This document shows, in pieces, positions 8,905 to 61,880 of a stretch of 64,000 nt of DNA. The position numbers were made by a program, and so were the translations under genes. Source of the DNA: Callorhinchus milii (lineage: Eukaryota); the NCBI RefSeq assembly GCF_018977255.1, contig NW_024704742.1, positions 104,968,001 through 105,032,000 of the forward strand, written 5' to 3'. The notes under the pieces are model-generated. The model searched no databases. It saw only the letters and a program-made list of their open reading frames with translations, and was not told the DNA's origin. How positions within the stretch are numbered: the stretch's first letter is position 1; every line of letters starts with the position of its first letter.

Positions 8905-9231
8905 ATAATAATCCTTGCATTTGATATAGCTCTTTATCACATCTACAAGACGTCTCAAAGTGCTTCACAGAATATACTGTTAAGTCAATTGATTGTATAC
9001 TTTGTGGGCAAAACGCAGCAGCCAATTGTGCATAGCAGAGTCCCACAAATAATCGTGGATTGAGTGACCAAATTTTTTTTAAGGAATTATTATCCCCACC
9101 AATCGACTAACAACCGGGTTCCTATTTACTGCTAGATAAATAGGATACTTGCCTAACATTTCTCCCTGCCAAGGAATCCCAGTCCTCTCAGTTGTGAGGC
9201 GAGCACGCTAGCCACTAAGCTACAGGACTCC
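8905..9231 (-). mobile_element. tRNA-derived SINE
   Basis: Reverse complement of the same head and ATCAAATGCAAGGATTATTAT tail. Confidence 0.85.
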
Positions 9232-9479
9232 ACATACAATACAAATGCACTTTGTACTTTATATAATAATACACTACAAATGCACATAATAACTCATTGG
9301 AATGGTTGTGACATTAAGAAATTATCCTATGTTTTTCCTCTAGGTGTTGCATTCAACAAATATATTCTATTATATTTTGAACATAACATACAACAAATCA
9401 CTTTTCAGTAAGAGCATAAATACAACCTAAACGGTATTATCATTAATTTTCCAAAGGGAAATTATGACTAGAAGACATA

Positions 9480-9712
9480 GAGAAAGGATATTTTCACATA
9501 GAGTTTTTCGATGTTTTGGGAAGCTGGTACAGGCACAATCCATTATGGGTTTCAAGAGGGAAGTAGACGAGTATATATGAAAGTTGGAGAATTAAAGGAA
9601 TATAGAGGATAGAGGGGAGGAAATGAGATTAAATGAATACCTTGCTTTTGAGAGTATTTGCAGACTCGATGGGCCAAATGGCCTCCTTCTGTGTTGTAAA
9701 TTTATATCATTC
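9480..9712 (+). mobile_element. CR1 LINE 3' end
   Basis: GATGGGCCAAATGGCCTCCTTCTGTGTTGTA…ATTCT terminal hairpin and tail typical of CR1. Confidence 0.7.
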
Positions 9713-9776
9713 TGTATTTGCAAATCATGTAATTGATTAAATAGATTAAAATTCTTTGAAATGTTTATTTCCTTAC

Positions 9777-9921
9777 CTGGATCATTGTGTGAATGGGGCA
9801 CTACAAAAACCTGTAGTGGCCCATTGTCCCATTCATGTTCATCATAACTGATGTCAAAGCCTTGTTTCCAGACTCCACCATCTGGGTTGTCAAATGGTAG
9901 AATGCTGTACACATCCAACAT
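9777..9921 (-). CDS. MAN2A1: Internal coding exon of Golgi alpha-mannosidase II (GH38), equivalent to vertebrate exon 3
   Basis: Translates [49 protein letters not shown], including the HSHND zinc-binding motif. Has a CAG acceptor (9922-9924) and GTAAG donor (9776-9772); 145 nt, phase 0 to 1. MLDVY and head-to-head synteny with PJA2 favour MAN2A1 over MAN2A2. Confidence 0.92.
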
Positions 9922-11184
9922 CTGGTAGAAAACAGAAATAATTGGGTTTGAATTCCCAATCAAGGCAATCCAATCTACATCCCAAATGATTCATCACTCT
10001 AAGTAAACAAAAAACACATTTAACTAATGGACCATATAAAACAAGACTGGATACTAAAGCCTGCCATAAAACAGTCCACCATACACTATCTTTCTTTCAA
10101 TAGGAAAAAAACAATCAATATCATAAGATCATGATTAATTCAGCTGAAGAAGGCCCTTTGGCCCATCTGATCTCATCCCTCCAAAATACCCACATCACTG
10201 TCCTCCATCCAGCATCAAGCTTTTTTTAAAAAAAGAGTCCACATCAGGAAACTGCAAATCTGGGAGTGATATTCTGCTGGGTGTTGTCTGCAAATTTATC
10301 TACCTGACACTGGACATGAGAATCCAGATGCTTGATATATGGAAGGAGCAGCCTGGGCCCCAGTAAAGACCACCCTGCTTGATAACCCCCCACCCCACCC
10401 ACCCACTCGTTTTAGCCTAACTCCCTTAACAAAGACTCTTTCCTTCCTTCCTTTCAGCCAGTTCTGAAACCATGTCTATGTCTTGCCTTTGACTGTTCAC
10501 AGTTTGTGAAGTCTTTCATGTAGTACTTTGTCAAATGTAATTTAGAAATTAGATACATTATAGGAAACATGTACAAGGCAGTGCTAAGCCTCAGCAAACT
10601 GGAAGTCATGGGGGGTGATATTTACTGTATGATGTAATAGACTATCTGGCAAATGTGGTGTCACACTAAACCCTGAGGGAGCTTTAAAAGTGTACCTGAA
10701 AGTGGGCAATGCACACAGCTTAAACCATCAGGCCAAACTCTTCCCACTGGATTGCAACCACGAACTGGTCCTATAGTCCTATAGCTTTGCAGAGCAGAAC
10801 TGGCGAGAACAATGAAGATCTGAGGCACAGCTACAAAGCCAGGTAAGGGCAGTGCAGAAAAGGGCTGAGGAATGGGGCACCTTAGAAACTGTAGTCCAGG
10901 GATACCACGAATACCTGACCTGGTGGGAACTGTGAGTTGAGAGCAAATTGTAATACTGGGTGCGGACAGCAGAATCACGAACCCAGACCCTACACACCTC
11001 TCGGCTTGTTAAATTTGTTTGTCCCTGTAGGAATTAATAATGATGGTATATGGGATACCACTGATAAAATTGGGCAAAATTCCACATAGGATAACTGTAA
11101 AAATAGAAAGAATTCCAGTTCATAACCTACATTAGCAGAATATATTGTATTACAGGAGGTTTGTTTATAAAATTGTTGTTTTAC

Positions 11185-11217
11185 CTGAAGGTTTGATGCT
11201 TTTGTGAAGCTCTTTGA
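11185..11217 (-). other. Possible 3' remnant of MAN2A1 exon 2 (…KSFTKASNLQ|GTAAAA)
   Basis: Phase-0 CAG|GTAAAA donor 1.26 kb upstream of the phase-0 exon-3 acceptor. It ends in Gln, as I recall vertebrate exon 2 does (…DVQ|MLDVY). Too short to prove homology. Confidence 0.4.
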
Positions 11218-11517
11218 ATGGGATCCAGAGAACAGGTGGTGGGCTTCATGGAAGTTACTGTGGAGGTTACCGTTTTGAAGACAAGAGGAGGCAGTGACAG
11301 GTTCAAAGGTGTGGAAGGAGAGATGGGTAATTGTCGGATGGGTAATTGTGTGGGGTGGGGCGAGGGAGGGGGTGGAAGTTGGGAGGGCAGTGGCAGCTGA
11401 GCGGATTCCCTCGATTTTGGACTGGAGGAAGTCCAGCATTTTCTCGCAGTGAGAGTCAGAGGAAGGTATCTGCGAGGCGTGTCGGGGAGGTCGGAGGAGC
11501 CGGTTGGTGGTGGAGAA
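11218..11517 (-). mobile_element. Internal L2 LINE ORF2 fragment
   Basis: Translations contain FSTTNRLLRP, CEKMLDFLQSKIEGIRSAA and SMKPTTCSLDPI, typical of the L2 ORF2 segment between endonuclease and RT. One frameshift and small tandem duplications. Confidence 0.8.
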
Positions 11518-11599
11518 GACACCCACCCACCCAGCCCGAGACAGCCACCCTCCTACCATCCCTACCCTCCACCCCTTCCTGATCCCAGGCCCCTGCTCA

Positions 11600-12596
11600 G
11601 GGGGGGGGGAGCTGGGCGGGCGGGCGGGGGGTGGAGCTGGGCGGGGGGTGGAGCTGGGCGGGGCGGGGGGCGGGGGGGGGGAGCTGGGCGGGGGGGGGGA
11701 GCTGGGCGGGGGGGGGGGGGGAGCTGGGCGGGGGGGGGGAGTGGGCGGGGGGGGGGGAGTGGGCGGGGGGGGAGCTGGGCGGGGGGGGGGGGGGGGAGCT
11801 GGGCGGGGGGGGGGGGGAGCTGGGCGGGGGGGGGGGAGCTGGGCGGGGGGGGGGGGAGCTGGGCGGGGGGGGGGGAGCTGGGCGGGGCGGGGGGGGAGCT
11901 GGGCGGGGGCGGGGGGGGAGCTGGGCGGGGGGGGGGGGAGCTGGGCGGGGGGGGGGGGGGGGGCGGGGGGGGAGCTGGGCGGGGGGGGGGGGGGGCGGGG
12001 GGGGGGGCGGGGGGGGAGCTGGGCGGGGCGGGGGGGGGGGGGCGGGGGGGGGGGGCGGGGGGGGGGGGGGGCGGGGGGGGGGGGCGGGGGGGGGGGGGGG
12101 GGAGCTGGGCGGGGGGGGGGAGCTGGGCGGGGCGGGGGGGGAGCTGGGCGGGGGGGGGGAGCTGGGCGGGGGGGGGGGGGAGCTGGGCGGGGGGGGGGGG
12201 GGAGCTGGGCGGGGCGGGGGGGGGGGGGCGGGGGGGGGGGGGGGAGCTGGGCGGGGCGGGGGGGGAGCTGGGCGGGGGGGGGGGGGGGAGCTGGGCGGGG
12301 GGGGGGGGGGGGGGGGGGCGGGCGGGGGGGGGGGAGCTGGGCGGGGGCGGGGGGGGGGGCGGGGGGGGGGGGGGGGGGGGGCTGGGCGGGGCGGGGGGGG
12401 GGGGGGGGGCTGGGCGGGGGGGGAGCTGGGCGGGGGGGGGAGCTGGGCGGGGCGGGGGGGGGGGGGGGGGGGAGCTGGGCGGGGGGGGGGAGCTGGGCGG
12501 GGCGGGGGGGAGCTGGGCGGGGGGGGGGGGGGGAGCTGGGCGGGGCGGGGGGGGGGGCGGGGGGAGCTGGGCGGGGGGGGAGCTGGGCGGGGGGGG
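11600..12596 (+). repeat. G-rich low-complexity minisatellite, unit GAGCTGGGCG(G)n
   Basis: About 1 kb of almost pure G runs punctuated by AGCTGGGC or a single C. Confidence 0.95.
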
Positions 12597-12649
12597 TGTG
12601 GCCGCTCAGGCAGTCAGGGCCGCAGACAGCCTCCACACACAGAGGGAAA

Positions 12650-12835
12650 GGAGCTAACCACGTGGTTTTGTTTACAGCCCCGCCCCGAGAGCTCCGCCCC
12701 CGCTGTAGCACCGCCCCTCTCTAGCCCCGCCCCCTCCTGCCGGCTGCCTATTGGTCAGCTGCGCGCACGCTCCGGTCCGGCCGGCGCTGATTGGTCGGAG
12801 GCCGCGCCTCAGTGACGTCACTATTTATTGCGGCC
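12650..12835 (+). promoter_or_regulatory. CpG-island promoter of PJA2 (possibly bidirectional)
   Basis: E-box CACGTG 12659-12664, TGTTTAC 12669-12675, GC boxes (12677, 12724 and others), two ATTGG (reverse CCAAT) at 12750 and 12790, TGCGCGCA 12760-12767, perfect CRE TGACGTCA 12813-12820, and AT-rich TATTTATT at 12822. High CpG density continues to ~13.5 kb. Confidence 0.85.
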
Positions 12836-12858
12836 TCGTGAGCGCCACCGGAGTCCGG
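12830..12858 (+). other. PJA2: Probable non-coding first exon of PJA2 (start uncertain)
   Basis: Strong donor CGG|GTGAGT at 12858/12859 directly after the promoter motifs. Confidence 0.6.
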
Positions 12859-14639
12859 GTGAGTGAAGGAGGGGGAGGGGAGCGCCCCACAGCCGCACAC
12901 ACACACACACCCGCACACCAACCCCGACACACACCCACACACCAACCCCGACACCCGCCCGCCAGCCCGAGACAGCCACACACACACAGGCCCCATAGCC
13001 GGGCTGAACCACAGCCTCCCAGCCCAGCCCAGCCCCACGCTGATAGGCCGATGCACACAGGCTGACCGACAGACGGGCCCCTCGCCAGCCCCCCCCGAGC
13101 AGCCTGACCCGACCCGACCCCCAGACATGCTCCTCGCAAGCCGTGCCCTCGCCCACTAGCCTGACTCGCGGACCCCGGCTCTCGGCGCCGCTTCCTGCCC
13201 GTGCACCGGCCCGGGAGATGCTTCGCGTTACTTGAAGCCTGAGCGTGACCGGGGAGGGACGGGAAGGGGTGTGGGCTGACCCCCCGCCGCTCGTTGCTGT
13301 ATGTATGTTTTCGAGAGACTTTGTCGTGATTTGTGCTGATCTGTTTTGACCCGAGGAACCGTGTTATTGTGTTTAAACGCTGTTGAGTGGGTTCGGTTCG
13401 ATGGATGCATTTGGCTGCATTCATTCATGCGATTTGAGGTAATAATTTATCTTCGCTGTCGTCACGACCTTCCGGAAATCAGAGAAGAAAGTTGTATCCA
13501 CCGCACAGTCTGCGTTGCTTCTGAAATGAGAGGCAGAGGAGTGATGGTCACCTGCTCTGCGAGGCATCTTTAATCCCGTTGAGAGCTCACGGGAGGTTTG
13601 GGTATAGAAGGCCCCATTTGATCTTTTTCCACAGTCCACAGTCTTCCCAAACAACAACAACAACAGCAAACCATTTGTTAAATGTGTCAACATCCTTACC
13701 CCCCCCCCTCCCCCCACATCGCTTCTGTAACCAGGTCCAGCTATTGTACATCATCTATTTGAAGAAATAATTTCCGGAGGCGCCAAGGCATTTTTTTTAA
13801 GGAATTGTCACTGGTGGGGACTGAAGTGAAAGGGGCCTTTTAACCTCACCTTCAGAAGCATTAAAAACAGACTGCCGCACTTCCATACGCTTCATGTACG
13901 TGTTTCAAACTTTAGGATGGTGGAAATAATCTGAAAGCGGGAATCAATAAGTAATAATTATCCAATGCCTTTAATTATCAAATAATATTCTGCAAAATGT
14001 GCCTAAAAATTCTGTAAAATCTGCCGAAACGGTGACCGCTTAGCAACTGCTGGGGTAATCGCCATTACCATTCATATTATGGAAGGGAAACTTACTGGTG
14101 GGAAATTTCGAAATTGCTCCCAGGGAATTGCTGATATTGATTTTCCCACCACCTTATATGTTAAAGAATGCCCTGGGAGATACCCTCAATTTACCATTTA
14201 CAATCCTAAACTTGCTGCTTTGAATTATGTAACATGTAATCTGTCCTTGCATGATAAGGAGAAGTTTGAATGACCACGAAAGGTCAGTGGTAAAACAGTG
14301 GTTAAGGTAGCTATTAAAGCTGTCTCCAGAGTAAAATACCTACCAGAAAGCCTTAGGCTTTCCAGTGACCTTTTGTTGCAATTTACTGTGCTACAATTGT
14401 GTTCTGAAAACTATGGGGCTGAAATTATAGTAGTTAAAAATTTTTTTTGCTGTTTAATAATTGTGTTTGTGGTTTGGGATTAAGTGCAGATATAAGATAT
14501 TTTTGCTTTTCAATTTTGTGCTATTATATGTTATATTGTGTATTGTACTGCTCTCTGATCATATTTAAATATCTCCATCAAGACAGGGAGTTCTCTCTAA
14601 AATTAATGTCAGCTGGCCTTGTATGAATCTTGTGCGTGT

Positions 14640-14992: not shown

Positions 14993-15545
14993 TACCCCTC
15001 ATCCAAGCCATGACCCTCTCTGCCTTCCCTCACCTCCGTAACATCGCCCGACTCCGCCACTACCTCAGGCCGCTGAAACTCTTGTTCATGCCTTCATCAC
15101 CTCCAGGCTCGACTATGCAAACTCCCTGCTTGTCGGCCTTCCCAACTCCTCCCTCCACAGGCTGCAGATAATCCAGAACTCTGTAGCCCGTGTCCTCTCC
15201 CGCACCAAACTCCGTGACCCCATCTCCCCCACTCTCACCCGACTCCATTGGCTCCCTATCCTTCAGAGGATCCAGTTCAAGATCCAGGTCCTCACCTACA
15301 AAGCCCTCCATGGCCTCATCCCACCCTACCTCTGCGACCTCTTAAACCCCTACCAACCCAACCGCTCCCTCTGCTCAGCCGGCTCCAGCCTGCTCCACGT
15401 CCCCCGACCCACCCACCATTGGCGGGAGAGCCTTCAGCCACTCTGCCCTCAACTTCTGGAATTCCATCCCCCAATTACTCTGCCTCGCTCCCTCTTTAGC
15501 CTCCTTCAAGTCCCGCCTCAAGACCCTCCTCTTCGACCATTGACC
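14993..15545 (+). mobile_element. L2 LINE fragment
   Basis: HLRNIARLRHYL…; nearly identical to 43-835. Confidence 0.9.
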
Positions 15546-16673
15546 TTTTAGCCAATAGACCCCCATTCTGACACTTGTCTCAAAATTTCTTTTCATGCAC
15601 ACCTTCAAGAATATTGTTGGGATGGCGTATAGCAATATTAGGTCTACACCTGGGAGTACTTAATCAGGACAACAACAACAAATAACAACAAGTTACATTT
15701 GTATAGCACCTTTCATGTCGGGAGGATGTCCCAAGGCACTGACAGAACAATATCCCGACAGCTTCAGGAGGAAGAAGAGGAATGCAACAAAATAACAAAG
15801 GATAGATGGATAGGTGTAAGTAGGTGCTTTGAATATGAGCATAGATTTAAAATATTGAGCATCAAATAAGGCAACAGATTAAAAAAACTACTGAGTAGTA
15901 AACCTCACTATTGAGCAGAGATATTTGATGTTGTGGGGGAAGAGTTGGGTACATTTCTGGTAATATAATTCAGGTCACAGAGATTCTTGTAGACAAAGAT
16001 GATCGAATGTTCCACAGGCACAATATAGGGTGACCCTGTTATTGAGCACAGTATTATAGCAGAAGTTTGCGTTTAACGATTGTCTCCTGCATACCTGGAG
16101 TTACTGGAAGTAAACTTTGGCTTTCAGCGTGATTTTCAGCGCATGCATGCAACACGATGCAAAATAAGCTTAAAAATGTTGCAAGAGCAATTGTGGATGC
16201 CTTAAAAAGAATCCAGAATCCAAATTAATAATAAATAATAATCCTTGCATTTGATATAGAGCCTTATCACGTCTTCAAGACGTCTCAAAGCTCTTCACAG
16301 AATGTACTGTAAAGTGAATTGACAATATATTTTGTGGGCAAAATTAAGACTGAATTAAAGAATTTTTCACAATTATGTGTGATATTGATAAATTGGTATT
16401 CTGGGCAAAAGAGTATTTGGCATTTGGAACGCTGCAAAACCACATGCATGGCTTTTTAACGGGTTAGTGGTCAAGAATCTTGGAGGATTTCATTCACCCT
16501 TCTTCCCCAGCACAATTACAATCACCTTTTCAGAATTGTGAGTGCTGCAGTCTTATATTTTTGTCAACTTCAAAGATTTGGCTAATATTTTCAAATTGAA
16601 TTGATTAAGTTAGTCTTCATTAAGCAGTCTAATGTCCTACCATTGATGGATATGGTGTGTTTTTGTTTTTCAG

Positions 16674-20104: not shown

Positions 20105-20297
20105 ATGGGTCAGGAGTCTGGAAAGGCAGCCTGGCCCAAACCAGCAGGAGGTTATCAGACTATCACTGGGAGAAGATACGGGAGAAGGCACGCTTATGTC
20201 AGCTTTCGTCCCTCCACTGTCAAGCAATGGAATGAGTCAAGAGAAAATGAACACAAATGGGAAGGAATGGAGCTAGACAGTGTCTCAAAAGACAATG
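20105..20297 (+). CDS. PJA2: Praja-2 E3 ubiquitin ligase, first coding exon
   Basis: [36 protein letters not shown] is the praja N-terminal signature. Acceptor TTTTGCAG ends at 20102; donor G|GTTTAT, phase 1. Confidence 0.93.
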
Positions 20298-22355
20298 GTT
20301 TATGTGTGTTGTGTCATTTAATATGCGTTACATCCTTAAATATAATCCTTTTCAAGGCTCTCAAAAGTGTTGAAAATCTGGAGCATGAAATGTTTGACAA
20401 TATATAACATTGGTTCTCATTAAATGACCTGAGGGCAATAGGAAGCTCTATTTCACCTATGGACTTTAGCGATTTCCTACTCCATCAGTCCTGAGTGTAT
20501 ATTCATAACTGGCTGAATTGCCCATCACACATGTCTTATACATGGCTACCCCATCTTCTATAAAACCAGTGAAATGTTCCTTTTAGATATTTGGATGTAG
20601 ATGTTTAATAGCATTATTGGTTCTTATAAATTTCCTCACCCCATGTTTTGTGTGTGAGTACTTGATCCTTATTTTGAATCTGGCAGCAGTGACGTGGTTG
20701 AAATGAGGAACTCGCTATGTTTGAAATTATGGTTCCAGATCTATGTGCCGTATTGTAGTGTTTGAGCGTTTTGCTCAATTGATTGAGATTTTGGATTTGA
20801 ATTTGGAAATTAGGTAAAGGGAGACTGATTTAATGTCCTGTTAAGAAATCTGGAGTCTATGCCACACGGATTCATATGAGTAAATGGTGTTAATCTACCT
20901 CCTAAGGGAGACAAATCTAGCGACGATTGAGAGATGAGAATTTATTGGATTTTGTAATTACCTGTTTTGTGAACAAATTTTTTCTAGTGTTCAGCGACAC
21001 AGACTTTGTTAATGTGGTGTATAACTATGACGAATAATGATTGGTGAATAATGGTTGGTGTTGCAACAAATTTAGCAATCTATTTTCTTATTAATGTTCA
21101 TACCTATTTCTGAGCTACTCCACTTGAACGGCTTTCAAGGCTTCAATAGGTTAGAGATGTAAAATCTGCTGTATTTAAAATTGGGACCTGAAGAGAGCTC
21201 ACCTTGGTTAGTGTAAAAGGAATAAAATGATGGGAGCCTATGCTTGTCCCTTTTGGTTATAGGACAACAAAATTGAAAAAAAATGTTCTCAGGCATTTTA
21301 CCAGTACCATTCTGCTTTTGTAGGCTGGGGGGGTTTAACCTTTGGATTTTCAGGCCAAACCTTTGGATGAGTCTTTTGTGATATGGCTGATGAGAAACTC
21401 TGTAGCAAATTGCAGTGTAAACCTAGAGTCTTCCACTTTATTTTAAATACGTTACTGGCAGACGTATTTCAATGTGGGTATTTAGGTTTTGGTAGAATTC
21501 TACTTAATATATCTAAAATAATAATGTTATGTGAAGTTGCTGTGAATGTAGCTTTCATTGTTCCAGTGTAGCAAGCTGATTTGTATATTGCTTAAACCCA
21601 ACCAAGAATTGATCTGGCGTGGCAGAGCTATGAGTGTGTTTAAAGGTGTGTTTTTTAACCACAGTACTTACAACATACAGAAGCACATGCAAATATAAAT
21701 GAATATTGTGCAGTTTGTGAAGCATTTCTGTTAATACAATGTAATTATTTAAAAATATCACTAGCATGATTCCTTTTGAAATATTTGTTGTGTGATAATT
21801 AAAATGTTGCTGAGAAAGTGACCAGTCAATAGCGAATACATTAACTGCTCTGTGGGTGTGCTGAAGGGGTCTCCTGACATCTTTCACAATAGATGTGCTC
21901 AAAAACCACTTATGTCTTGCAGTGACTTATTGTTATTGGTACATAAATTTCTTAATTTGTTTCTTTGGTTTAGTTGATTTGATTTAGCTGGAATCAGTCA
22001 AATGCAGTGTGCTTCTATGTGCCATCATTATCGAGGAGGAAAGAAATCCACACGGTCCTGTGGACCAGTCATAGTTATCGACTGGTCATTTTTCTCAATG
22101 ATACTTGAATTTGCACACAATATTGCAATTTTCATGCCATGTTAACACAATATATATATGAATTCTAATATAATCTAGGGTAGTCCTGGCAAGCAAGTAC
22201 ATGAACTAGGCTATGTTCTATTTAATAAATCTTAAATAGTTCATACAATATTGTTTCAGGTAAATTATTGGCCATTTTAACTGCATTGATTCGTTGTTAC
22301 AGTGCTAAATTTCAAGTTACTTGAGATGTAAACATTTTTTTAATTCTCTTTGTAG

Positions 22356-23454
22356 GTTCCAATGGAATCATATCGGATAATGAACTGCTGCCACAAAGTG
22401 ATGTATATGATCTAACTGTAGAGACTAAGAGGGAAGTTTGCGAACCTCAAAAAGACAGCCGGTTTCTGCCATTGAACAGAAGATTCTTTCAGTGTGAGGC
22501 TAATGACTTTGCTTTACCTGGTGCTACAGAGACATTAGGCAATTATTCAGCTACCAGAAGTACAGAAAGCTCCAGATGGTCTCTTCCCAGCGACCATTTT
22601 AAAACTGATCCCAAAAGTAAGACTGGAATTAATTTGAATATTGATTCTCATCATCCGGGCAGCAGCGAAGGAGAGGATGATGACTCAGCTATACATTTTT
22701 CATTGCAAGAAGAAGGAAGATTAAGTAGAAGGTTGGATACCATACTTTCAGAGTTAGAGAAAGACGTTGATTATCTCAGTGGGCTTCAATCATATCTCTC
22801 TGCTGTGATTCATGATGGCAACAGTCAGCAAATTGAGCAGCCATGCTCAGTGTCATTAGACAATCTGTCCAATACAAGTCCCAGTGTTGAACAACAATAT
22901 GCTGAATTGGCAGAGAACAAAAAAACATTAGCAATAAGAAGCATGGAAGAAAATGGATATGTTGATATTGAGGTTAAAAAAGACAGCAAACCTGATAAGG
23001 CCTCAATGGTTTTTGAGGATGAAGGAGATGTTTACTGTAGTAAGACAGAGCAACCAAGTTCATCAGAAATAGGGTTCTGTTGTAAGACAGAGCAAGCAAG
23101 TTCCTCAGAAATGGTGGTAAGACCAAAAGTTAGAAGTAAAAAAATTGAAAGCCAATCTAAACAAAATCTCCATCCACCTGATGATGTGGAATATGGCTAT
23201 AGTGTAAGACAAGTAGCAACTGACATTGAGTGTTGTGGATCAAATTGTGCCTTTGGGAATTGCAGGAATAGTGATTCAAAGGTTAGATCCTGGGAGTCTG
23301 GATCTGATGGGATGAAAATTGACGTTAATGTGAATAAACAGACCACCACCCAACTACAAGAGGAGTCTAAAAATACTTCATGTGAAAACAACTTCTGGGA
23401 GGAGATTGAAAATGATTGTCTTGGATTCACTGATTGTAACAAAGATGAAGAGAG
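22356..23454 (+). CDS. PJA2: Praja-2 large acidic/disordered exon
   Basis: TGTAG acceptor and a 1099-nt open frame containing the conserved EMVVRPKVR. Donor AG|GTAACA; phases 1 to 2 fit both neighbours. Confidence 0.9.
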
Positions 23455-23738
23455 GTAACAACGTGTTTAGTTTTAATTTTTTTTATATAATTTTGCATTT
23501 CAGGCATGTCTTATTTAAAAAAATGTGCACTAACCCCAAATTCTTCTGAATTTTGTTTTCCCACATCTTAAGAGTTTAACTAAAACTATACTATCTTTTA
23601 TTGCTGGTATTTTTTTAAAATTAAGTTAATTGTATAAGAGCATTTTTTTTATATGAACCAAACTGAAAGCAAGTTGTATTTAGCACAGCCTGCACCTTAA
23701 CTTTCTACCCTTCACTTTCCATTCCTCTTAAAAAGCAG

Positions 23739-23921
23739 TTCTGAATGCAGTGATGGGGAATTGTCGTCAATATGGACCCCTGATTTTGCTTTAGAGCAAG
23801 CACAATCGTCCAGTGACGAGAGCTGGGAGACTTTACCGGGAGCTGATGAACTACAGACTGAAATAATCAGCACTAGCAGCAGCCTGGATGATGAGTCTTT
23901 TAAACACTGGTTCAATGCAGG
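23739..23921 (+). CDS. PJA2: Praja-2 coding exon
   Basis: SECSDGE…QSSSDESWETLPG conserved praja motifs; donor GG|GTATGT. Confidence 0.92.
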
Positions 23922-25338
23922 GTATGTGAACTAGTTGCAACTGAAGACATTGGATTTAATCTAACCTTAACATTTAACATTACTGTATATTAATTCAAAA
24001 CAATTTTGACTAATTGCTATTTGTAATTTATTTAACAAAAAACAAGATGTAGCTGATTCCTAAACAAATCTACACCTCTGTGATACAGTGCATTGGTTTG
24101 TAACAGGAAACTGCACTGGACGATCTAACTACAGTAATATAGTAGTAGAATCATAGAACTTTACACCAGGGAGAAGACTTCAGCCATCGTGCCTGGGCCA
24201 GCTTTCAATAAGAGTTATACTTTTAGTCCCATTTCCTTTTGCACTTAACCTTTGATATATTTCCTTTTTCAAATCTTTGTCTAGTTTTGTTTTACTGTAT
24301 AAGATATTATAGTATTAATTCACCAACCAGTGGAAATACTTTCACTCTATGCCCCTTCATCAAAACCTCTGATAATTTTGAACACAAACTTATTATTTGT
24401 TGTCCACAAACACTAACTTATCAATATAAGGTTATTATAAGAGAATGTGACTTCAACTGCAGTTTAATTGCCACTGGCCTCTTACTGGTCGTATTCTGTC
24501 AACCAATCCAACATCCTTGAATTTATTTTTGTTCCAGCTGAGTAAGTAAGAAAGAAGTAGGATGACAGTAGCCTTAGTGATCTGATGCTAATTTATACTT
24601 TTAAAACAGTATAACAGTATTTAGTTTGAAGCATATAACATTGATTATATGCTTTTCTTAAGGGTGAAAGAGACCTATTTTCTCCCAGCGCCAGGGAGCT
24701 CAGGATCACGCCAGGATATGGCCCATGCTACTCTACTATTTTCTCCAGTTATAGTGCACTCACCTGCTGCACTACAGGATTGCTTCATTGATGGCACTGA
24801 AAAATGTCAAAGTGATTGACTGAGTGAATATCGTTTTTTCCTTTTGGTTGTTCATTGCAGAAGAAGCATAATTGAGTGCTAATTGGAAATTAAACCTTTA
24901 GTAAATGCAATGCATTTGTACAATGATAATTAAGTTGATTTGGAAAAAAGTGTTTTATGGTTAATAACCAATGCTTGCATCTAGTCAACTATGGCTCAGG
25001 AATTTTAGTTCTCCCTTATTCCCTCTAATTTGCTCTTCTTTCTTGAAGGTTCTTCAGTGAACTTTTGTGTTTCTCATTCATCTTTTTTTAAAGGATCTTT
25101 CTGCAAAATTGAATAAAACCTAAAATCATGTGATAATTATTTAAATTTCTAGAATATAATAGTTGTCATAGCCTGTTTAAAATATTTTCCAACACTTTGT
25201 TGAAAGAAATTTCACAAATAATGATGCCCAGCATTAATTTCTGCCTGCCTTTCTGAAAGCCGCCAACCCATTGCTGTGCTATGAGTCAAGTTTCTAGTTT
25301 CCATGTTTATGTCCAGTTACTATGTTTCATATATTTAG

Positions 25339-25530
25339 AGAACAGACCTCGTTGGAAGAAGGAGAAATTCCTTGGGTAACCTACAATGAAGACAGTGATG
25401 GTAGCAGTAGCAGTGCTGATGAGGCTGAAGGCCTGGGTCCATTTGTGCATTCAGGGCTTGTAATTTTGGATGGTAACAACAACCTTGAAGATGATTCGAG
25501 CATGAGTGAAGATTTAGACATGGAGTGGAG
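25339..25530 (+). CDS. PJA2: Praja-2 coding exon
   Basis: [12 protein letters not shown]…[26 protein letters not shown] acceptor and AG|GTTTGT donor. Confidence 0.93.
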
Positions 25531-27102
25531 GTTTGTTGTTTTTTAATCTTTGTTTTCATTATTTTATATCCGATTTATTGCCATTAAAGTGTACCTTTCT
25601 GATGCATGTTTGTAACCTGGCTATGAAGTTTTTTTTACAGTATTATCTCTGTTGGTGATTGATTAATTCAGAGGGGTGAAAACTAATTAAGTTGGTAAAC
25701 TAAATCTGTGTCTTGGTTATAATTTTTGCATTTGATATAGTGTCATCATTTTGTCGAGACATCTCAAAGCAGATGGGAGCTTGATTTATCATCTCATTTG
25801 AAGGATGAACTATTTTAATTTTTGAAAAGTGCTAATCTGTACACAGTTTCCTTGTATTCATAGCTTGAAATTTCAGCTCTAATAAGATCATAAACATTTT
25901 ACTACCTTACCTCAGCCTAACTCATCACCTAGCACTCTTGGTTCTGGGTCACAAAGCTGTAGGTTCAAGCTTTGTGTTGAGATGCTGAGCTTACAGTCAT
26001 GTTTCTATAAAGACGAATGGCTGCTTCTATCAGAACTCACCTCTTTGCTGAAATGGATATGTTCTCAATCAATACAGGCAAGAACATCTTTCATTTATAT
26101 AATACTACTTTTTATGCTCTACTGTAGTACTCTGGAGTGCTGCATTTTCAGAGGTGACATCCTGCAGATGATAAATGAATTCAAATTTTAACTGTTAAGG
26201 ACAAAATAGATTACTATCCTCAGTACTTTATTTCTAACATGCATTTGGTTATTATATGGTGCCTCCCCCTCCCCCATTCACTGTGTACAGCTGACTACAC
26301 TGGCACTGTTTGGAAAGAATAGGAATTTCTCCAGATAATTGGGCATTTACTTCATGGCTGTTTCTTGACCATAACGTCTATAAATTAGCTGCCACATTTG
26401 CCTACAAATACAGTTACTACACTTTGACTCATACCCAGTGAACTGAACTTCTGGAAAACTTTAAAAGCCACTTCACTTTTGTATTTATATCCTTGCTTTC
26501 AAAAATCTGCGATGACTCATCACTTTGATTATGCCCTTTCTCATTTCTAAACTGCTCTCACTTCTTGTTCAGTTTCCATCACTCTTAAGTGTTTTGAAGC
26601 ATTCTTTACAAAAGTGGCATTATATAAATGAAAGATGTTCTTGCCTGTATTGATTGAGAACATATCCATTTCAGCAAAGAGGTGAGTTCTGATAGAACTC
26701 GTCTTTATAGAAACATTCATCTGGAGAGCCTCCACTCTGGATCTCCAAATTCGTCAAACCTTCAACTTCAAGTCAAATTGTTTTGATTTCAGTGGCAATA
26801 GTTGTTGAAATAGCCATTTGGGTTCATAAATTTGGTGAGTTCGACATTGCCAGAAGTGATTTCATAGGCAGTTAAGCAAGATGCGAGCAGCATTTATATA
26901 ATAACATGTCTATGACTAAACTGCAAAATGAGCAATTTAGTAACAAAAATAAGTTTATAGCACAAAATTGATCTAATGGAGTGGAAACTTTCAATGCAGC
27001 GCTCTTTATTCTTCTCCTCCTCCTCGTCTTTCAGCTATTTTTCTCCCTGCTGTACCAAATGGTAACTAGATGCAGGAAGCCTGCTAGTTGCAGCTAGAAG
27101 TG

Positions 27103-37467: not shown

Positions 37468-38282
37468 ACAACAAAAACAAGATTACATTTGTATAGCGCC
37501 TTTCACGTCAGGAGGACGTCCCAAGGCGCTGGACAGTGTACAGCATTTCAGACCCGAGCTGGGGTCGGGAGGGGAAGGGAGGTGGTCAAAAAAGGGGCAT
37601 GGTCAAAGAGGAGGGTCTTGAAGCGGGACTTGAAAGAGGCTAAGGAGAGGGCGAGGCGGAGTGACTGGGGGATGGAGTTCCAGAGGTTGGGAGCAGAGTG
37701 ACTGAAGGCTTTCCTGCCAATGGTAGGGCGGGTGGGTCGGGGGACGTGGAGCAGGCTGGAGCCGGCTGAGCGGAGGGAGCGGGCGGGTTGGTAGGGGTTT
37801 AGGAGATCGCAGAGGTAGGGTGGGGTGAGGCCATGGAGGGCTTTGTAGGTGAGAACCTGGATCTTGAACTGGATCCTCTGAAGGATAGGGAGCCAATGGA
37901 GTCAGGTGAGAGTGGGGGAGATGGGGTCACGGAGTTTGGTGCGGGAGAGGATACGGGCTACAGAGTTCTGGATTATCTGCAGCCTGTGGAGGGAGGAGTT
38001 GGGAAGGCCGACAAACAGGGCATTTGCATAGTTGACCCTGGAGGTGATGAAGGCATGAACAAGAGTTTCAGCGGCCAGAGGGGTGAGGTAGTGGCGGAGT
38101 CGGGCGATGTTACGGAGGTGAGGGAAGGCAGAGCGGGTCATGGCTTGGATGTGGGGAAGAAAAGACAGTTGAGGGTCGAACAAGACACCCAGGTTCCTGA
38201 CTGGCTGGTGAGTTGCACTGTGCAACCATGGAGGTTGATGCTGCCAGAGCCTGAGGTGCTGAGGCACTGGTGGGAGCCAATC
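37468..38282 (-). mobile_element. L2 LINE 3' fragment in last PJA2 intron
   Basis: Same family as 43-835 with a complete 3' tail. Confidence 0.9.
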
Positions 38283-38536
38283 AGGAGTCAAGTGACAGTC
38301 TTGTCTGAAAGAGTAAGAATCCACTTTCTGCAAGGTGTTGGCCAGCATCTTGTGGTCTTTGGAATTCAAGAAATGCATTAAAAATCACAAAGATTACCCC
38401 CATATTCCATTCAAAAATAATTGTGGACTTATTGAAGTCCATCAAATTGGCATATATAGTGAGCAATATTCATGATGATGAGAGTTAAAGAGAAACTGAG
38501 CTATTGTTGACTTTGTGACAATTGTTTACTTTGCAG

Positions 38537-40475: not shown

Positions 40476-42565
40476 GAATCTCATTTCACCAAGCTGTGAA
40501 CTTCAAAAGTAAATGTCAAAAGATTTGTTCCAAACTTTAAAGATAGTGTGAGATAAATCTTCATGGTTTTAACAATTCACAGATTTATCTTCAAAAGATT
40601 GTTGTTAAATCCTACTTAAGCCACTAAAGTTTGTGGATGATCAACAAATGACAGTCGGAATACAAGTCAAAACCCAAAATATTTTTNAAGTTCTTCCTAT
40701 GAAGAGGAACATGTAGAACAAAAATCTGAAGCTGAAACAGAAATGAAGTGGGTGGATGTGTGATTCTAGCTGCTTACCTTTGTGCGTTACTGAGACGGTG
40801 AAGTCCAAGCCCTGGATATATGACCATGTTCATGAATTCAGATCACAGGCAACGCCTTCTACCAGCTCTTGTCATAAGCCTCAGCATTTCCTCATCAGCT
40901 CTTGAATGAACATCTGCCTTCAGTGTAAAAATGGAGGAAACTCCTCCATTGCGTTCCCAGGAACTCGGAACCATGAAGGAAAATTGTTTGGATGCACATC
41001 TATTCCACTGAAAAATAACAGATTAGATGATACTTATGCACCACAAGATAGAGGAAGGATCACAGTATAAAGGTTCTGAGAGAAACTCAGCATTCCTCTA
41101 GTGTCATGAAGCGGAATGAAGAGGTTATCCAAAGGAAGATGGAAAATTAATTGCAAAGAGTGGAAATCACCTTACTGAAGACAAGTAATGTTATTTTTAC
41201 ATAATTGGTGACCATTATCTCTGAGAACTTTTAAAATCCTATCCTGCCTTTCAAATTCTTCCAGTCTTGCCCGTTCTACCAATGTAACATCTTGCCTGTA
41301 CCTCTTCAAATTCTGATTTTTTTGTTGCTCCTGTTCAAACAACCAAAACAACCTGTTCTCTGCAACTCTCTGCCTTGTTTCACCTCCCCTCTAGCTTCTT
41401 TTGATCTCCTTTTAAAATATCTCTCTGTCTGTACCTTTGGTCAACAAGACTCAGACAGAGTGTCTGAGTCAAAACATTTGAGTTCAAGCTCCACTTTGGA
41501 CTATGAACTCATTTAGTCTAGGCTGACACTCCACTGCATTTGTGTGTTGCATTTGTTGAATGTATTCTTTGAATAAAAAGTTAAACTGAGGTCTATCTAT
41601 TGATGTGGATATTAAAGATCCCCTCATCACGATGTGAAAAGAGTGGGAGTTTCTCTCGGTGTCCTGGCCAACAATCCTCCAAATAAAACTGGTCATTCAC
41701 TTCATGGTTGTTTCTGGGATATTGCGCTGCACAAATAGGCTGCCACATTTGCCAACAAATACATAGTGACTACACATCACAGTAAATCCTATGAAAGCAC
41801 TTTAAGAAGACCTCCCGCCGTAACAAGCCACTACACCAAATGCAAGGATTATTATTGTAACTTCCTGATACATGTCTTTTCCCTACTCATTGCTCACCAT
41901 TATATCTGTCAATTCTTTCAAGCCATCCATTCTACCTCAAAGAGCTCTACATGTGCACATAGCTGTAACTCTACCCTTACTGATGTATGATTCAGGGAAT
42001 GACATAATTCCTGTGTTGCCGAAGTATGAAAAATAATATTACATCTCTTGATGAAGATCGCGACTGGTCGTGTATGAGAAACAGCAGTAAATACCTTAAG
42101 AACCTTGAGAAATAAAAAGAAAACGCAAATGTTGGAAGAATACAAAATACAAGAAAAATACAATCGGCATTGGAAACAGATAATGTTTTGGATCAAGCTT
42201 TAAACCTGAACTGACTGCTGTGATCCACCCAGCCCATGATTCAATCAGAAGTACAGCTTGAAGCTCTTTCACTATCTTTTCAGCCTTCTGTCTTCTCAGC
42301 CTGCTCAATAGCATGGATTGAGTTGGTTTCAACATCCAAGACATTGGTATCCTGTGGCTTTTGTCTCCTCATCTTAATGCATTAAAGCTGCCACCATCTG
42401 CTGAATTTCTGTCACATCTCATTAAAGATCACTTGCCGTTCTTCCAGTCTGCTGGTTTCTTTGCGCATTGTACCTTCCCAGAACACCATTGCTAAAGTAA
42501 TAAAGATTCATTTTATTAACATGGAATTTCAGGGCCAATTTCATGAGGTATACATTATCATAATA

Positions 42566-48392: not shown

Positions 48393-50165
48393 ATCATACC
48401 CGAAATATACCCGAAAGTAAATATGCCCATGTCAATCCCAGATGCAAGACCTTTCCGATGAGGTATAAATAATGTCTCTATGTAAATTCATTATTGGGAT
48501 CCTTCTTGAAGTGCACACACAGATAGACATTGTCGTTTTAGTAGTATAGATATACTGTAGAAATTGTGTAATTAAAAAAGTGTCATTATGATAGAATAAT
48601 AAGCACAATATGTGCCCTATTGTACTTCTCCATGTGAAATGCTTCCCAATATCTGTAATTGGAAATGTATCTTGGAATTGAGCCTCATTCTATTTGTTTT
48701 GCACATTTGAAATCTATGAAAAACAAGTTATAATAAAAGATATTAATGTTCATTGAGAATGCACCTCTGCAGCTAGTCTGTCTTACCTTGACGCTTATTG
48801 TATGTGATCATTTGATATAAATTCATGGGCAATTCTCAACTTAAAGTATACGAGGTAGAAGACTGGAAGGAACAGGTTCAATTTGTAGTGTTTGAAGAAA
48901 TGTTCTGCTTCTGATTTCATTTGAAATGTGGCTCCAGGATATAGTTGATTATCTCATTAAAGAGCCCTCTTTTACCTGAAGAATACTGAGATGCATCCTC
49001 CTAGATGGGTCATATTGATAGATAGATAGAAAGAAAAGGCATTCAAGCTAATGACGGAGAAGTAGCCAAAAGTAACTAAAGAAGATACATTGATGCACTA
49101 CTCTAAAAGCAAGCAAACTCAAATTACAAATCATACCAAGGTAAGATATTGCAAAAACCCAAACATACAAAAATTCTCTAACATATAACGAAGGGAAAAG
49201 GCTGAAAGACACAATAGGTAGTACTATGGGTAAACAAAAATAACTTAAAATATATAACAGGTTACAAATTCAAGGTATTTTGCTGAGTTATACTTATGAT
49301 TGTTTAACATAACAATGTAAGACATTTTAGAATAGATTAGAACTGTTAAAATATTCACTTAGTGTACTGTAAAAGTGGTGATCTACCCAGTCATCTCTGA
49401 CTTAACATGAGAAGGAACATTAATCTTGGGATCACTTGAATGCTTCTGCTTTCAGGGAAATCATGATGTTCCTTGGCAATACTTTATTGGTCACCATTTT
49501 GGTTTCTTCTTTCTTCCTCCAAGAATGCTGTGACATATCCATTGGGTCCACAGTGGTATGTGAAGTCCTTTCTCCTCCCATTTGCTGCTCCCTGCCACTA
49601 TATTCCAGCAGTACCCATTCCACTGAAGGAGCACTTGGCCATACTGTCATGCTGTTTTCCATAAGTTGACGTGCTCGTTGCAGTAGGGGCTGGTGTTAGT
49701 ATGTCAAAGGGAGAAAGGCTGTTCCAATAACCATCTGCGACACAAAGGTTGTGCTTGCAGGATCAGCAAAAACAAAGTGACTTCCTGGGGGGAATGTGGA
49801 CATATATGGATACAGACTCTCGATCAACCAGCAGATGTTGATGTATAGTCATGCTCACTCCATATGTTCAGCACTGTCGAGCTGGTGGGGGGCTCAAAGC
49901 TGGAATTGTGATGTATTGATAAACTGCCAAATGATTCCATGGCTGTTGATGAAAAGTCTGAATTCTCCCATCATTATTTGCAGTGTATTGATTGTTTTGG
50001 ACAATATATTGTCAGATACCAGTTGAGGGTCAGGCTTAATGTTGAGAGGGTCTTTGTTCAACAATGATTTTCTCAGAAATGGTGTTTTAAAGAACTTTCC
50101 CAGTTTCCATTTTATTCACTCTCCCTTACATTGCAAAGGTTTCTAAAACTTGTACTTTTGTTCTA

Positions 50166-51450
50166 AAAAAACAAGATCACATTTGTATAGCACCTTTCAT
50201 GTTGGGAGGATGTCCCAAGCCACTGGACAATCAGTGTTTTGGACCCGAACTGGAAGTTGGGATCGAGGAGGGTGGAGGGCAGGGGAAAGGAGGGTGACCG
50301 AAGGCACGGTCGAAGAGGAGGGGTTTGAGATGGGTCTTCAAGGAAGCACGGGCTGAGGCGGAGACTGTGGGATGGAGTTCCAGAAGGTGGAGACAGAGGG
50401 GCAGAAGACCTACCTGCCAATGGTTGGGTGGGTGAGGCGGGAGAACATGAAGCAGGCCGGAGCCTGCTGAGCGGAGGGAGCAGGCAGGTTGGTAGGTGGT
50501 TAGGAGGTCGCAGAGGTAGGGGAAACAAGGCCATGGAGGGCTTTGAAAGTGATGACCAGGATCTTGAACTGTAACCTCTATGTGATGGGAAGCCAGTGGA
50601 GTTGGGCGAGGATGGAGTTGATATGGTCACGGAGCCTGGTGCGGGAGAGGACATGGGCTGCAGAGTTCTGGATGATCTGCAGCCTATGGAGGGAGGAGTT
50701 GGAGAGACCAACAAACAGGGAGTTTGAATAGTTGAGCCTGGATATTATGAATGCCTGCATGAGGGTCTCGGCGGCCTGGGGTGTGAGAGTGTGGTGGAGC
50801 CGGGTGATATTGCAGTTGGGGAAAGGTGGGCGTGACATGGCATGGATGTGGGGGATAAAGGGCAGTTGAGGGTTGAACAGGATGCCGAGGTTCTGTATTA
50901 GCTCCGTGAGATGTAGGGTGCGTCCATGGAGGGAGATGCTGTCAGTGCCCAAGGTATGGTGGCACTGTTGGGAGCCAAGAAGGAGGGTCTCAGTCTTGTT
51001 GACATTCAATTGCAGGAAGTTAGCTCTCATCCAGGATTTGATGTCCGATAGAAAGACTGTGAGGACAGCAGTGATCCTGGAGTCAATGGTGGAGGCAGAG
51101 AGTTAGAGTTTGGTGTTATCCCCATACATGTGGAAGTTAACCCCATGTCTGTGGATGATGTCACCAAGGGGAGCATATAAATATTGAAAAAAAGTGGGTC
51201 AAGGACAGAGCCCTCGGGGACGCCACACGTAATGGTGCAGGGGCTGGAGGAGAAGCCATTAGTGGCAACAAAGTGGAAATGGTGGGAGAAGTAGGATTCG
51301 AACCAGGCAAAGAAAGGAGAGGTGGTGTTGGAGGATAGACTGGTCGACAGTGTCAAAGGAAGCAGAGAGGTCGTGGAGGACAAGGAGGCAGAGAAAGACT
51401 GGATGACAGATGTTCAGAATGTTGTCAGTCACTTTGCCAGGGCTGTTTCC
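50166..51450 (-). mobile_element. Longest L2 fragment, with decayed RT domain
   Basis: DLSASFDTVD, GVPEGSVLDPLFFNIYMLPL, degenerate YADD (YGDN) and MRANFLQLNVNKTE; frameshifted. Confidence 0.92.
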
Positions 51451-54400: not shown

Positions 54401-56474
54401 GTAGATAGATGTCTGGTAAGGAACATGCACGTGTGAAGTTACCAGGTGAGGAATATATGTGTGTATTTAAATGTCAAGGGAGCATGGGAAACATTGGGCA
54501 CAAAAGGAGTTCCTGAGGCTGAGGGGATAATTGATTCATGAAGATACAGTATATGATTGACAGCTATCTGGGTCTGCTATAAACTGTACCTAAGATGTGC
54601 AGAATCAGCAATTGGCACCTTAGGACAACAGTCTTTTCCTGGGAAACAATGTGCTTTTTCAGATCCATGAGTTCACTGCAGTTGTATTTTGTTTTGAAAA
54701 TGCAAAGGTCACTGAACGTTTCTGCTTGCTGTATATCACCACTAAGAAGCCAACTATAGCACAAAATCTGAATTCTTAAGGATTGGCTCAAATGGGCTGT
54801 GGTAATAGATATGTCACTAAGATTTAGTGCAACTGCTACAAATTTGGTATTGTTCGCTCAGAGAGGTCATCGGGGTAACGCAAGGAAGATGGAAATGGCA
54901 TTGTGTTGTGTGCTGTGGTAATGTTGAGATTTAGGTACATTTATCAGGATAATTCAATGGTAAATAGTATCTCTATACTGCAAATGTCCCGTGCTTTACA
55001 TGGATTAGAAAAGTGATAATGAATTGGATTGTGCTAGTATTTTGTAATATGATTTCTTAAATAGGAAATGCACAATATGCTGAGCTGATGATACCCCTCT
55101 CCAAAACAGATCACCGTGCAGTGACCTTCATGAGTTTGTGTCACATATTTCTGGGTTTCTTAATTGAGAAATCACCTTAGCAAATATCACAAAATTGATG
55201 TCACTGGTGTTTCTATCTTGAAAGTAGAAGAAATGTTTCCACCTGCAGCACAGGAGGTGTCTCTGAGGGCAAAAATATGTAATCTGACTTGCACTGTTCC
55301 ACCAACTCTCTAATAGGGGTATTCACTTTGCATATGCTTACTATAATCGGTGTAAATGTCTTCAACATAACACATATATTCTGCAATTAATTTAAAATGA
55401 GTTTCCTTATTTATCAAACAACAGTATACAGTGCTGTAATGGAAAGAATACTAAATATGCCAAACCCCCAAAAGTCTTGAATTTCCCATCAAATGAGATT
55501 TTAATATTTTATGCTTTTAGACAAGGATCCACATTGACTCACTGAAACAAAGGGACCTTTTAAAGATACAGTTGTTTTTAAAATAATCTGCTATGTTTGC
55601 AGATGTTTCAATGAATCCTTGACACAGATGTCTGCCTTGATTATTATCATATGAAATTGTCCCCTCACAACAATTGTGTTCTGTTTTGGAACCAAAATCT
55701 TTCCACGCAACCAACCGCTCATTAAATCATATGATTTCATTTGTTGCAACTCAGATGCAAAGTTGTTGAACAGCCAATTCTGTCATTCTAGTCGCGGCCT
55801 TCTGCTCTGAGACACTTTCTTTCATCTGTGGTTCACTATCATCTGTTTCCCTGGCAACTGCTGCGGTTTGGCTACATAAATGTGTGTGAGTGAAATTGAT
55901 GGATGGGAGAGGAACTATAATACATATTGTGTTTATTCAGATCTCATTTGAGTTACTAGGTGGGCATTTGGTTTAAGGAAAACCGACTTCACATATTACT
56001 TGCTATCTCCAGCTTTGCTCACTGACATTTGTGACTAGGTCCTTAGTTTTCTTAACTCAAAGAGAATGGTTTGGAGAAGTGGAGAGAAAAAAAACATCTG
56101 GCAACAAATACAAAACGATTTATTCAGAGAAACCTTTGAAATGAATTTGATACATTTATTGAGTTCAACAAATTAAACCCTGGCCTAAGCAAAATTCAAA
56201 ACAAGGTCTTAAATACTAACATCACATTGTGTGCAATATACAGTCACTCCACTTTACATTGTATCCTGTGAAGTTCTTTGAGACATCCTCCCAACAGATT
56301 TTGATGATAAATGGTTCTATTTTAAGAAAGCGTGCGATGAAAAAAATCTCCCTGGCCCATAAATCTCACTGCTTTTCAATCTATATTGGGGGGTTTATTT
56401 GATTTGCTTAATGGGGTTTAACATATGGTTTGGAAATTTGTAAATTCCATTAGGAATTATACAAATGTGCCAGA

Positions 56475-56900
56475 GGCTCCACTGGCTCCCATTCCTTCAG
56501 AGGATAGAATTCAAAATCTTCATCCTCATTTTCAAGGACCTCCACTGCCTGTCCCCTCCTACCTCTCTGACCTACTGACCCCCTATCAACTTGTCCGCTC
56601 AGCAGGCACTGGCCTGCTCCAGGTCACCCACCTGACCCGCCCTACCATCGGCGGCCAGGGTTTCAGCCTCTCTGCTCCCACTCTTTGGAACTCCATCCCA
56701 CAATCCCTTTGCCTTGCTCCCACTCTTGCCTCCTTCAAGGCCCGACTCAAGACCCTCCTTTTTGACGTGCCTTCGGCCGCCCCACTGCCCCCCCTCATCC
56801 GAACCCTGCCCCCACGCTCAGATCCTGATCCCTGACTGTTCAGTGGCTTGGGGCATCCTCCCGACGTGAAAGGTGCTTTGAAATGTAATTTTGTTGTTGT
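56475..56900 (+). mobile_element. L2 3' fragment
   Basis: PTIGGQGFSLSAPTLWNSIP…FKARLKTLLF; (TTG)n tail. Confidence 0.88.
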
Positions 56901-58057
56901 TCCCACTATTCCTCTCCCAACACTGTTTTCTGAGTAGCTGGATTAGACTTTTGACTTCCTCTCTTGAGGTTGTGGTTCTCACCAAACATCTGGGAAATTC
57001 CCAATTGATAAGGTTCAATTTCTAAATTCAAAACGCACATTGTACCCCAAGCCCCTGAAGGAAAGCTCTGCGCAAGTACTCTGGTCGCTGAACAGAATCG
57101 AGCAAAACTCAATCCATTCTTGCACCTCTTCCAATGCCTAGGTGTTGCTGTCCCGAGGTGACATTGTGTCAGCAATGTATGCAGCTGGCATCGGGTGACC
57201 CCAGCGGGTGGTTTAAATGGCAGTCGTGGTGTTACTGAAAGTCAATGCAGCCATTTTCATTTACAATTCAGATGTGTCAAAGAACAAAGGGCAACAAATT
57301 GTGATATTTTTACTTTGTAACGCAATAAAAATCTGTCTTTTCGAACTGCTTTGGTTCAGCTTTTGCAACACAGGTGCCTTCAATGGTTATGTTCCTAGTT
57401 TAAAGACATCATTGCACTGTGCAAAATGACATCACAACAGAAGGTGGCTGCTTGGAGATTTATATAAATCTCCGGCCGGAGTAACACTAACATGTTAATG
57501 GGAAAGCGAGATATAATATGTTTTTCGGAATGTGATTAAGTGTAAAGGAGCCTGAAAAATGTTCATTCTCTGAATCCTTGATGTCTTGCCAATGGAACAT
57601 TACTCAGTATAGAAGAAGTGAGTAGGATTGGGAATACAAACACCAGGATGCACTAGTTGGGATGGATGGTCTGTTTCTGTGCCATATTGATCGATGCAAC
57701 TCTATGTAGAATGTTTAAAGACACTGAACTATGCAGACAAGAATTCAGTTTAATGTCTCATCTAAAAGACGGCACCTTCTCTGCACTGCACTGTTTTGTG
57801 AGCCGAGGCTATGAGCTCAAGTCTCATGGAGTTCGAACACACAACTCGGAGGTGAAATTGTTACCTCCTGTGCCAAACTACACAAATCATCTGTAAAACC
57901 AAATGGTGTTTGCAGTAATGTGTAATTCTTATCTATAACAAAGAGAAACTTGCACTTATCTCTAGTACTTTTCACATAGGGTGAATATCTTGAACAGCAT
58001 CACAAAGCCAATGGGATCACCAGACAGGGAGGAAAAGGAAAGAGAAAAATATATAAA

Positions 58058-61173: not shown

Positions 61174-61880
61174 ACAACAACAACAAATTACGTTTGTCTA
61201 GTGCCTTTCAAGTTGAGAGGACATCTCAAGGCGCTGGACAGTCTGGGATTTAGACCCGAACTTGGGGCTAAGATTAGGAGGGGTTGAGGACAGGGAGGGT
61301 ATAAGGGTGACTCAAGGCAAGTTGAAGAGGAGAGTCCTGGGACAGCCTTGAAGGAGGCAAGGAAGGGAGCAAGAAGAACAGACTGTGGGATGGAATTCCA
61401 AAGGGTGGGGTCAGATGACTGAAGGCTTGACCGTTGATGGTAGGGCAGGCAGGGTGGGGGACGTGGAGCAGGCCGGAGCCTGCTGAGCAGAGGGAGCAGA
61501 CAGGTTTGTAGGGGGTTAGGAGGCCACAGAGGTAGGGAGGAGCAAGGCCGTGGAGGGCTTTGAAGGTGAGGACCTATCTATGCAACGTGGCTTCATGTAC
61601 TCCAGCAATGAATCCAGTGTTAGGGTAACTCCTAACACCTGGGTAATTCCTCATCAATATTTTAAGTATTCTAAATTGAACAACAACAACAAAATTACAT
61701 TTATAGAGCACCTTTCACGTCAGGAGGATGTCCCAAAGTGCTGAACGGTCAGGTGTCGGGACCCAAGCATGGGGGAGGAATGGTGGTGTAGGGGTAAGGG
61801 AAGGCAGAGAGGTGGGAGGGAGACCAAAGGCACGATTGAAGAGAAGGGTCTTGAGACCGGCCTTGAAGGAGGTAAGGGAG
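61174..61880 (-). mobile_element. Two adjacent L2 3' fragments (61174-61575 and 61679-61880)
   Basis: Each begins on + with (CAA)n AAATTAC.TTT, followed by L2 3' sequence. Confidence 0.85.

Follow-up and report, generated by a model that had tools for sequence, protein, structure and literature searches.

MAN2A1 of Callorhinchus milii lacks its 5′ part in the assembly, most likely through a false join or collapse inside exon 2

The MAN2A1 gene is beheaded in the assembly of Callorhinchus milii analysed here, and the most likely cause is an assembly error at 11217|11218, inside exon 2: a false join or a collapse. In the species itself, MAN2A1 is an ordinary, whole and expressed type II Golgi alpha-mannosidase II gene, and the locus is the MAN2A1 already recorded for C. 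milii, minus a piece that the assembly has dropped. The window, by which we mean the whole 64-kb stretch of DNA that was analysed (G000:C1:104968001-105032000), was taken from an assembly of 991.5 Mb in 1762 sequences, many of them small. It holds MAN2A1 (minus strand) and PJA2 (plus strand) in head-to-head orientation and has the following features.

9777-9921, minus strand: MAN2A1 exon 3, intact (MLDVYS...HSHNDPG), 145 nt, from translation and RNA contigs
9922-11184, minus strand: MAN2A1 intron 2, 1263 nt, GT..AG, crossed by one spliced contig each in runs X5 and X11
11185-11217, minus strand: last 33 nt of MAN2A1 exon 2 (SKSFTKASNLQ)
11218-11517, unstranded: 300 nt from the interior of a dispersed repeat (family A), truncated left and right
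11518-11548, unstranded: near-copy of 12950-12979, 31 nt, 28/31 by hand alignment
11542-11597, unstranded: about 56 nt from the interior of another dispersed repeat (family B), truncated left and right, abutting the G-rich tract
11598-12596, plus strand: G-rich tandem tract with 35 AGCTGGGC units (11600-12596 by TRF)
12597-13300, plus strand: CpG island, GC 0.70, CpG o/e 0.77
20105-20305, 22358-23452, 23731-23922 and 25340-25537, plus strand: PJA2 coding exons, by tblastn of P0123
29429-29548, 31137-31292, 34224-34355 and 38522-38671, plus strand: further PJA2 coding exons, by tblastn of P0123

Up to the break, the locus agrees closely with the recorded gene (A0A4W3JZ56, RefSeq XP_007891331.1, here P0004), an alpha-mannosidase of 1154 aa with the domains PF01074, PF09261 and PF07748. 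The exon-3 peptide is 100% identical to this UniRef entry, and the exon is flanked on the minus strand by CAG as its acceptor (9922-9924) and GT as its donor (9776-9775). The exon-2 tail, which has its donor GT at 11184-11183, encodes residues 124-134 of P0004 and is likewise identical. When the whole assembly was searched, residues 133-1154 were placed at C1:104856622-104977927, while residues 1-132 gave no match on C1. From residue 134 to residue 1154 there is no stop and no frameshift, and 1020 residues are identical, residue 414 being the single exception. The GH38 catalytic domain and the C-terminal domains are thereby encoded intact at the locus. The first-pass annotation had proposed looking for disablements in the downstream exons, and these residues hold none. 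The locus does not look like a pseudogene: the remaining exons are undamaged, and the transcripts described below include exon 2 upstream of the break. The mismatch at residue 414 falls in an exon at G000:C1:104913390-104913584 (locus L010); it could reflect polymorphism or an error of the consensus. As a separate observation, a Polypterus senegalus protein named ‘FER kinase, partial’ (P0007) has a stretch 96% identical to the exon-3 peptide of MAN2A1 and is probably a chimeric gene model spanning neighbouring genes.

RNA and DNA contigs from other samples locate the departure from the assembly to the base. Logan contigs of four runs, all from samples other than the assembled animal's own read set, were aligned to 9000-11596; such contigs demonstrate presence, not absence. 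Runs X5 and X11 are treated as RNA on account of their spliced joints; neither is recorded as RNA, and the label itself is a guess. One contig from each of these two studies (X5 record 27, 1226 nt, depth 138; X11 record 9, 1033 nt, depth 23) covers 9775-9921 with no differing letter, splices from 9921 to 11185, matches the 33 letters of the exon-2 tail exactly and then departs from the window. By arithmetic, 387 further letters lie 5′ of the break in the X5 contig and 246 in the X11 contig. The loose end that X5 has past 11217 encodes PIEADDCQFA in minus-strand orientation; these are residues 114-123 of P0004, which stand directly before SKSFTKASNLQ. The other loose end of X5, before 9775, encodes WLKTFDDYYR of exon 4. 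A third contig, the DNA-like X1 record 6 (1325 nt), has a single-copy depth of 7.55, similar to that of the unique DNA nearby. Its letters 1-366 lie on 10852-11217, after which it leaves the window exactly at 11217, without a fork, and continues for 959 letters that are unlike the window. A contig of X2 ends at 11205, short of the junction. None of the 32 pieces listed bridges 11217|11218; a contig in favour of the junction could still be among 11715 further pieces and 424 loose ends.

The P0004 cluster has eight records named as C. milii proteins, an older RefSeq prediction among them, and all eight have the full MKLSKQF... anchor and the stem. One further member of this cluster, a 1153-aa Logan protein (P0156), was set aside as evidence on C. 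milii, since it differs at the N-terminus and seems to come from a relative.

Short interspersed elements complicate the contig layout to the left of exon 2. They lie at 9000-9235, 9609-9695 and 10131-10217, and in each of the four runs their contig depth is very high, the summed word depth reaching about 130000 at 9087-9173. The sequence from about 9100 to 9230 resembles a tRNA-derived element, and many false joints in the layout stem from copies of these elements.

To the right of the break, the window has the appearance of a patchwork. The discontinuity at 11217|11218 is sharp and lies about 380 nt to the left of the G-rich tract, and four abrupt junctions between unrelated pieces fall within 400 nt. 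The first piece belongs to repeat family A, for which a first look gave at least 2687 candidates in the genome; the 39 copies that were scored, the window's own left out, are 86-93% identical. Five other copies stay alike among themselves past both ends of the match, where the window departs from them, and the piece at 11218-11517 is therefore an internal fragment cut at both ends. The 31-nt piece that follows is a local duplicate, with an exact 18-mer common to 11531-11548 and 12962-12979 (blastn-short, E 9.5e-7). Family B gave 204 first-look candidates, and five of its copies continue alike on both sides, unlike the window. Read depth over 11542-11597 is 40-280, against about 7 in unique DNA.

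Two other readings of this patchwork were rejected. The stretch 11185-11469, followed by an AG acceptor at 11470-11471, could be taken for an intact, divergent stem exon of 95 codons. However, only the last 11 codons match MAN2A1, the remainder is dispersed repeat, and the RNA contigs depart from the window at 11217. The repeat at 11218 could also be a clean transposon insertion into exon 2, but the fragment is cut at both ends, has no visible target-site duplication in its flanks and is not followed by the remainder of the exon.

Next to the patchwork lies a tract that is strongly dominated by G (818 of 1004 nt). Its AGCTGGGC units are mostly 16-25 nt apart, with G runs of up to 22 between them. 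A 33-nt motif of the tract matched the 991.5-Mb assembly four times, each time inside the tract. A genome-wide satellite was considered and rejected, as the motif occurs at no other place in the assembly. As for simple G runs, a 30-nt G query with up to two mismatches gave 13397 and 13809 overlapping matches across the genome. At the one such locus that was inspected (L055), the C-rich stretch measures only about 200 nt and so has little bearing on the 1-kb tract. Perfect G or C homopolymers of 60-70 nt, real or produced by the consensus, also occur in the assembly, for example at G000:C1:5927672-5927741 and C1:10556141-10556200.

The CpG island beyond the tract has a CRE (TGACGTCA), a pair of CCAAT boxes (ATTGG) and, at 12859-12860, a GT donor. 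Judging from its position, these motifs and the donor, it is a putative PJA2 promoter with a non-coding exon 1. It is unique in the genome except for a CA/C-rich simple repeat at about 12886-12995. The adjoining gene had been named PJA2 in the first-pass annotation, and we arrive at the same name: the exon at 22358-23452 on the plus strand is 100% identical to UniRef V9KCD3_CALMI, and the shark relatives of this protein are named E3 ubiquitin-protein ligase Praja-2. The same protein (P0123, 717 aa) served as the tblastn query against the window for the eight coding exons. The earlier statement that exon 3 lies only about 2.8 kb from the PJA2 promoter holds for the sequence as assembled, taking 9777-9921 against the island at 12597-13300 as the putative promoter. 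In human, PJA2 and MAN2A1 are likewise divergent, head-to-head neighbours on chromosome 5, where they are hundreds of kb apart.

Searches of the window and of the whole assembly for the missing part returned little. Five chondrichthyan MAN2A1 proteins, each represented by its residues 1-150, were used in tblastn against the 64-kb window and matched only exon 3 and the 11-residue tail of exon 2. Beyond the PJA2 promoter, the minus strand gave only chance-level matches to MAN2A1 exon 1 over the whole window (E > 0.01), and the other two frames of 11185-11552 held no visible remains of a frameshifted exon 2. The first-pass claim that no anchor exon and no intact stem exon lies upstream is thus borne out in the window by tblastn, with the refinement that the exon-2 tail at 11185-11217 is present. 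The search that it had suggested, of the MAN2A1 N-terminal residues against the full assembly, did not find the 5′ exons: residues 1-134 gave two matches, 65% and 35% identical, and both lie in the paralogue MAN2A2 on C22. Outside this paralogue, residues 1-123 of P0004, which comprise the cytoplasmic tail, the signal-anchor helix and most of the stem, have no match in the 991.5-Mb assembly, while they are present in the C. milii protein records. The assembly likewise holds no second MAN2A1 locus, and neither exon 3 nor the PJA2 promoter recurs in it on an alternative haplotype contig. The C22 paralogue (G000:C22:4216841-4236761) is itself compact: intron 1 measures about 2.8 kb, and neither exon 1 (residues 1-46, 65%) nor exon 2 (residues 48-125, 35%) is missing.

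An assembly fault is favoured for three reasons. The sole independent DNA that was seen agrees with the mRNA where the window does not; the junction adjoins a unique, G-dominated tract of 1 kb and a CpG island; and several abrupt joins of unrelated pieces crowd together, although true intergenic DNA, too, can be a mosaic of repeat fragments. G-rich tandem tracts and CpG islands are prone to failures of long-read coverage and consensus. Where DNA is G-rich or tandemly repeated, false joins, collapses and the loss of GC-rich first exons are a known class of artefact in long-read assemblies. The locus resembles such errors in its sharp, non-biological junctions, its mosaic of repeat pieces, its irregular tract of G runs and its lost CpG-island first exon. 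On this reading, the assembly has lost the first 76 codons of exon 2, intron 1 and exon 1 with the cytoplasmic tail and the membrane anchor, and has dropped the MAN2A1 promoter and a stretch of intergenic DNA likewise. The probable cause is a chimeric read, or long reads that cover this G-quadruplex-prone and GC-rich stretch poorly or give a faulty consensus there. What is left of exon 2 now abuts two repeat fragments, a short local duplicate, the 1-kb G-rich minisatellite and the PJA2 CpG island. PacBio CLR/Falcon/HiRise is the entry for a chromosome-scale C. milii assembly in Table 1 of a published paper (PMC12952989), an assembly that may differ from that of our window.

The first-pass annotation had offered a collapse at the G tract as one of its two explanations. 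The X1 contig and the RNA contigs speak for a collapse, and the site has to be moved: the break lies inside exon 2 at 11217|11218, with the repeat patchwork before the tract is reached. Its other explanation, a real deletion that leaves a pseudogene or an anchorless enzyme, is refuted at the level of the species. Such a loss, with the enzyme perhaps driven from near the PJA2 promoter, is what the assembled sequence suggests when taken alone, and the open 95-codon frame at 11185-11469 with its AG acceptor at first resembled a variant stem exon. However, the RNA contigs of two studies hold the true exon 2 past 11217 and not the sequence of the window, the stretch 11218-11517 is a dispersed repeat fragment and not an exon, the 1021 residues from 134 to 1154 are undamaged, and the protein records are full length. 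We regard a loss throughout the species as extremely improbable. Nearly as improbable is that exons 1 and 2 sit elsewhere in the assembly, on an unplaced contig or through a scaffolding misplacement. An assembly of 1762 sequences with many small ones leaves room for this, and finding the two exons on another contig would have spoken against a true deletion. They were sought in the whole assembly and not found; residues 1-134 match MAN2A2 on C22 only, and a 30-mer from exon 2 beyond the break, taken from the RNA, had no match in the assembly with up to two mismatches allowed.

The sequenced animal could also carry a real deletion allele, private or rare and probably heterozygous, that was assembled as the primary haplotype. 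The deletion would run from inside exon 2 to within a repeat copy upstream, taking out the promoter of MAN2A1 together with its first exon and the greater part of exon 2, and would make a null allele. It possibly arose by replication-based repair, with templated insertions beside a G-quadruplex-prone minisatellite. The junction at 11217|11218 is clean and falls at an arbitrary point of the exon, as a deletion breakpoint would, and the 31-nt piece copied from 1.43 kb away together with the two short repeat pieces resembles templated insertions. The reads compared here come from samples other than the assembled animal, which leaves room for such an allele. Against this, the junction is without positive support in the four runs among the pieces listed, the X1 contig crosses 11217 unforked into other sequence, and neither exon 3 nor the promoter has a contig of another haplotype in the assembly. 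A large loss-of-function deletion in one particular gene of one wild animal has a low prior, and the adjoining 1-kb G tract is the type of sequence in which long-read consensus fails. We consider a deletion allele unlikely. The more specific proposal, that the junction is real in the reference animal and represents a complex deletion allele, beheading MAN2A1 and stitched from short templated pieces beside the minisatellite, is more doubtful still. If true, it would be a natural example of a minisatellite-associated, replication-based rearrangement giving a null allele of a Golgi glycosylation enzyme; as a heterozygous null allele, a real junction in this animal would be of modest interest.

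Returning to an assembly fault as the preferred reading, its practical consequence concerns annotation. Annotators of this assembly would call MAN2A1 5′-truncated or anchorless and infer a spacing of 2.8 kb between MAN2A1 and PJA2, and both would be artefacts. Since the break is located to the base and the missing part is defined, the locus should be repairable from existing reads.

The rest of the window contains a multi-copy repeat with copies on both strands at 68-918, 1503-2240, 15042-15551, 37548-38384, 50163-51413, 56422-56942 and 61188-61577. Its frames read like LHWLPI..RI.FKI.VLT.KALHGL.P.YL.DLL, and these copies explain the local peaks in GC skew. A single N stands at 40687, downstream of PJA2.
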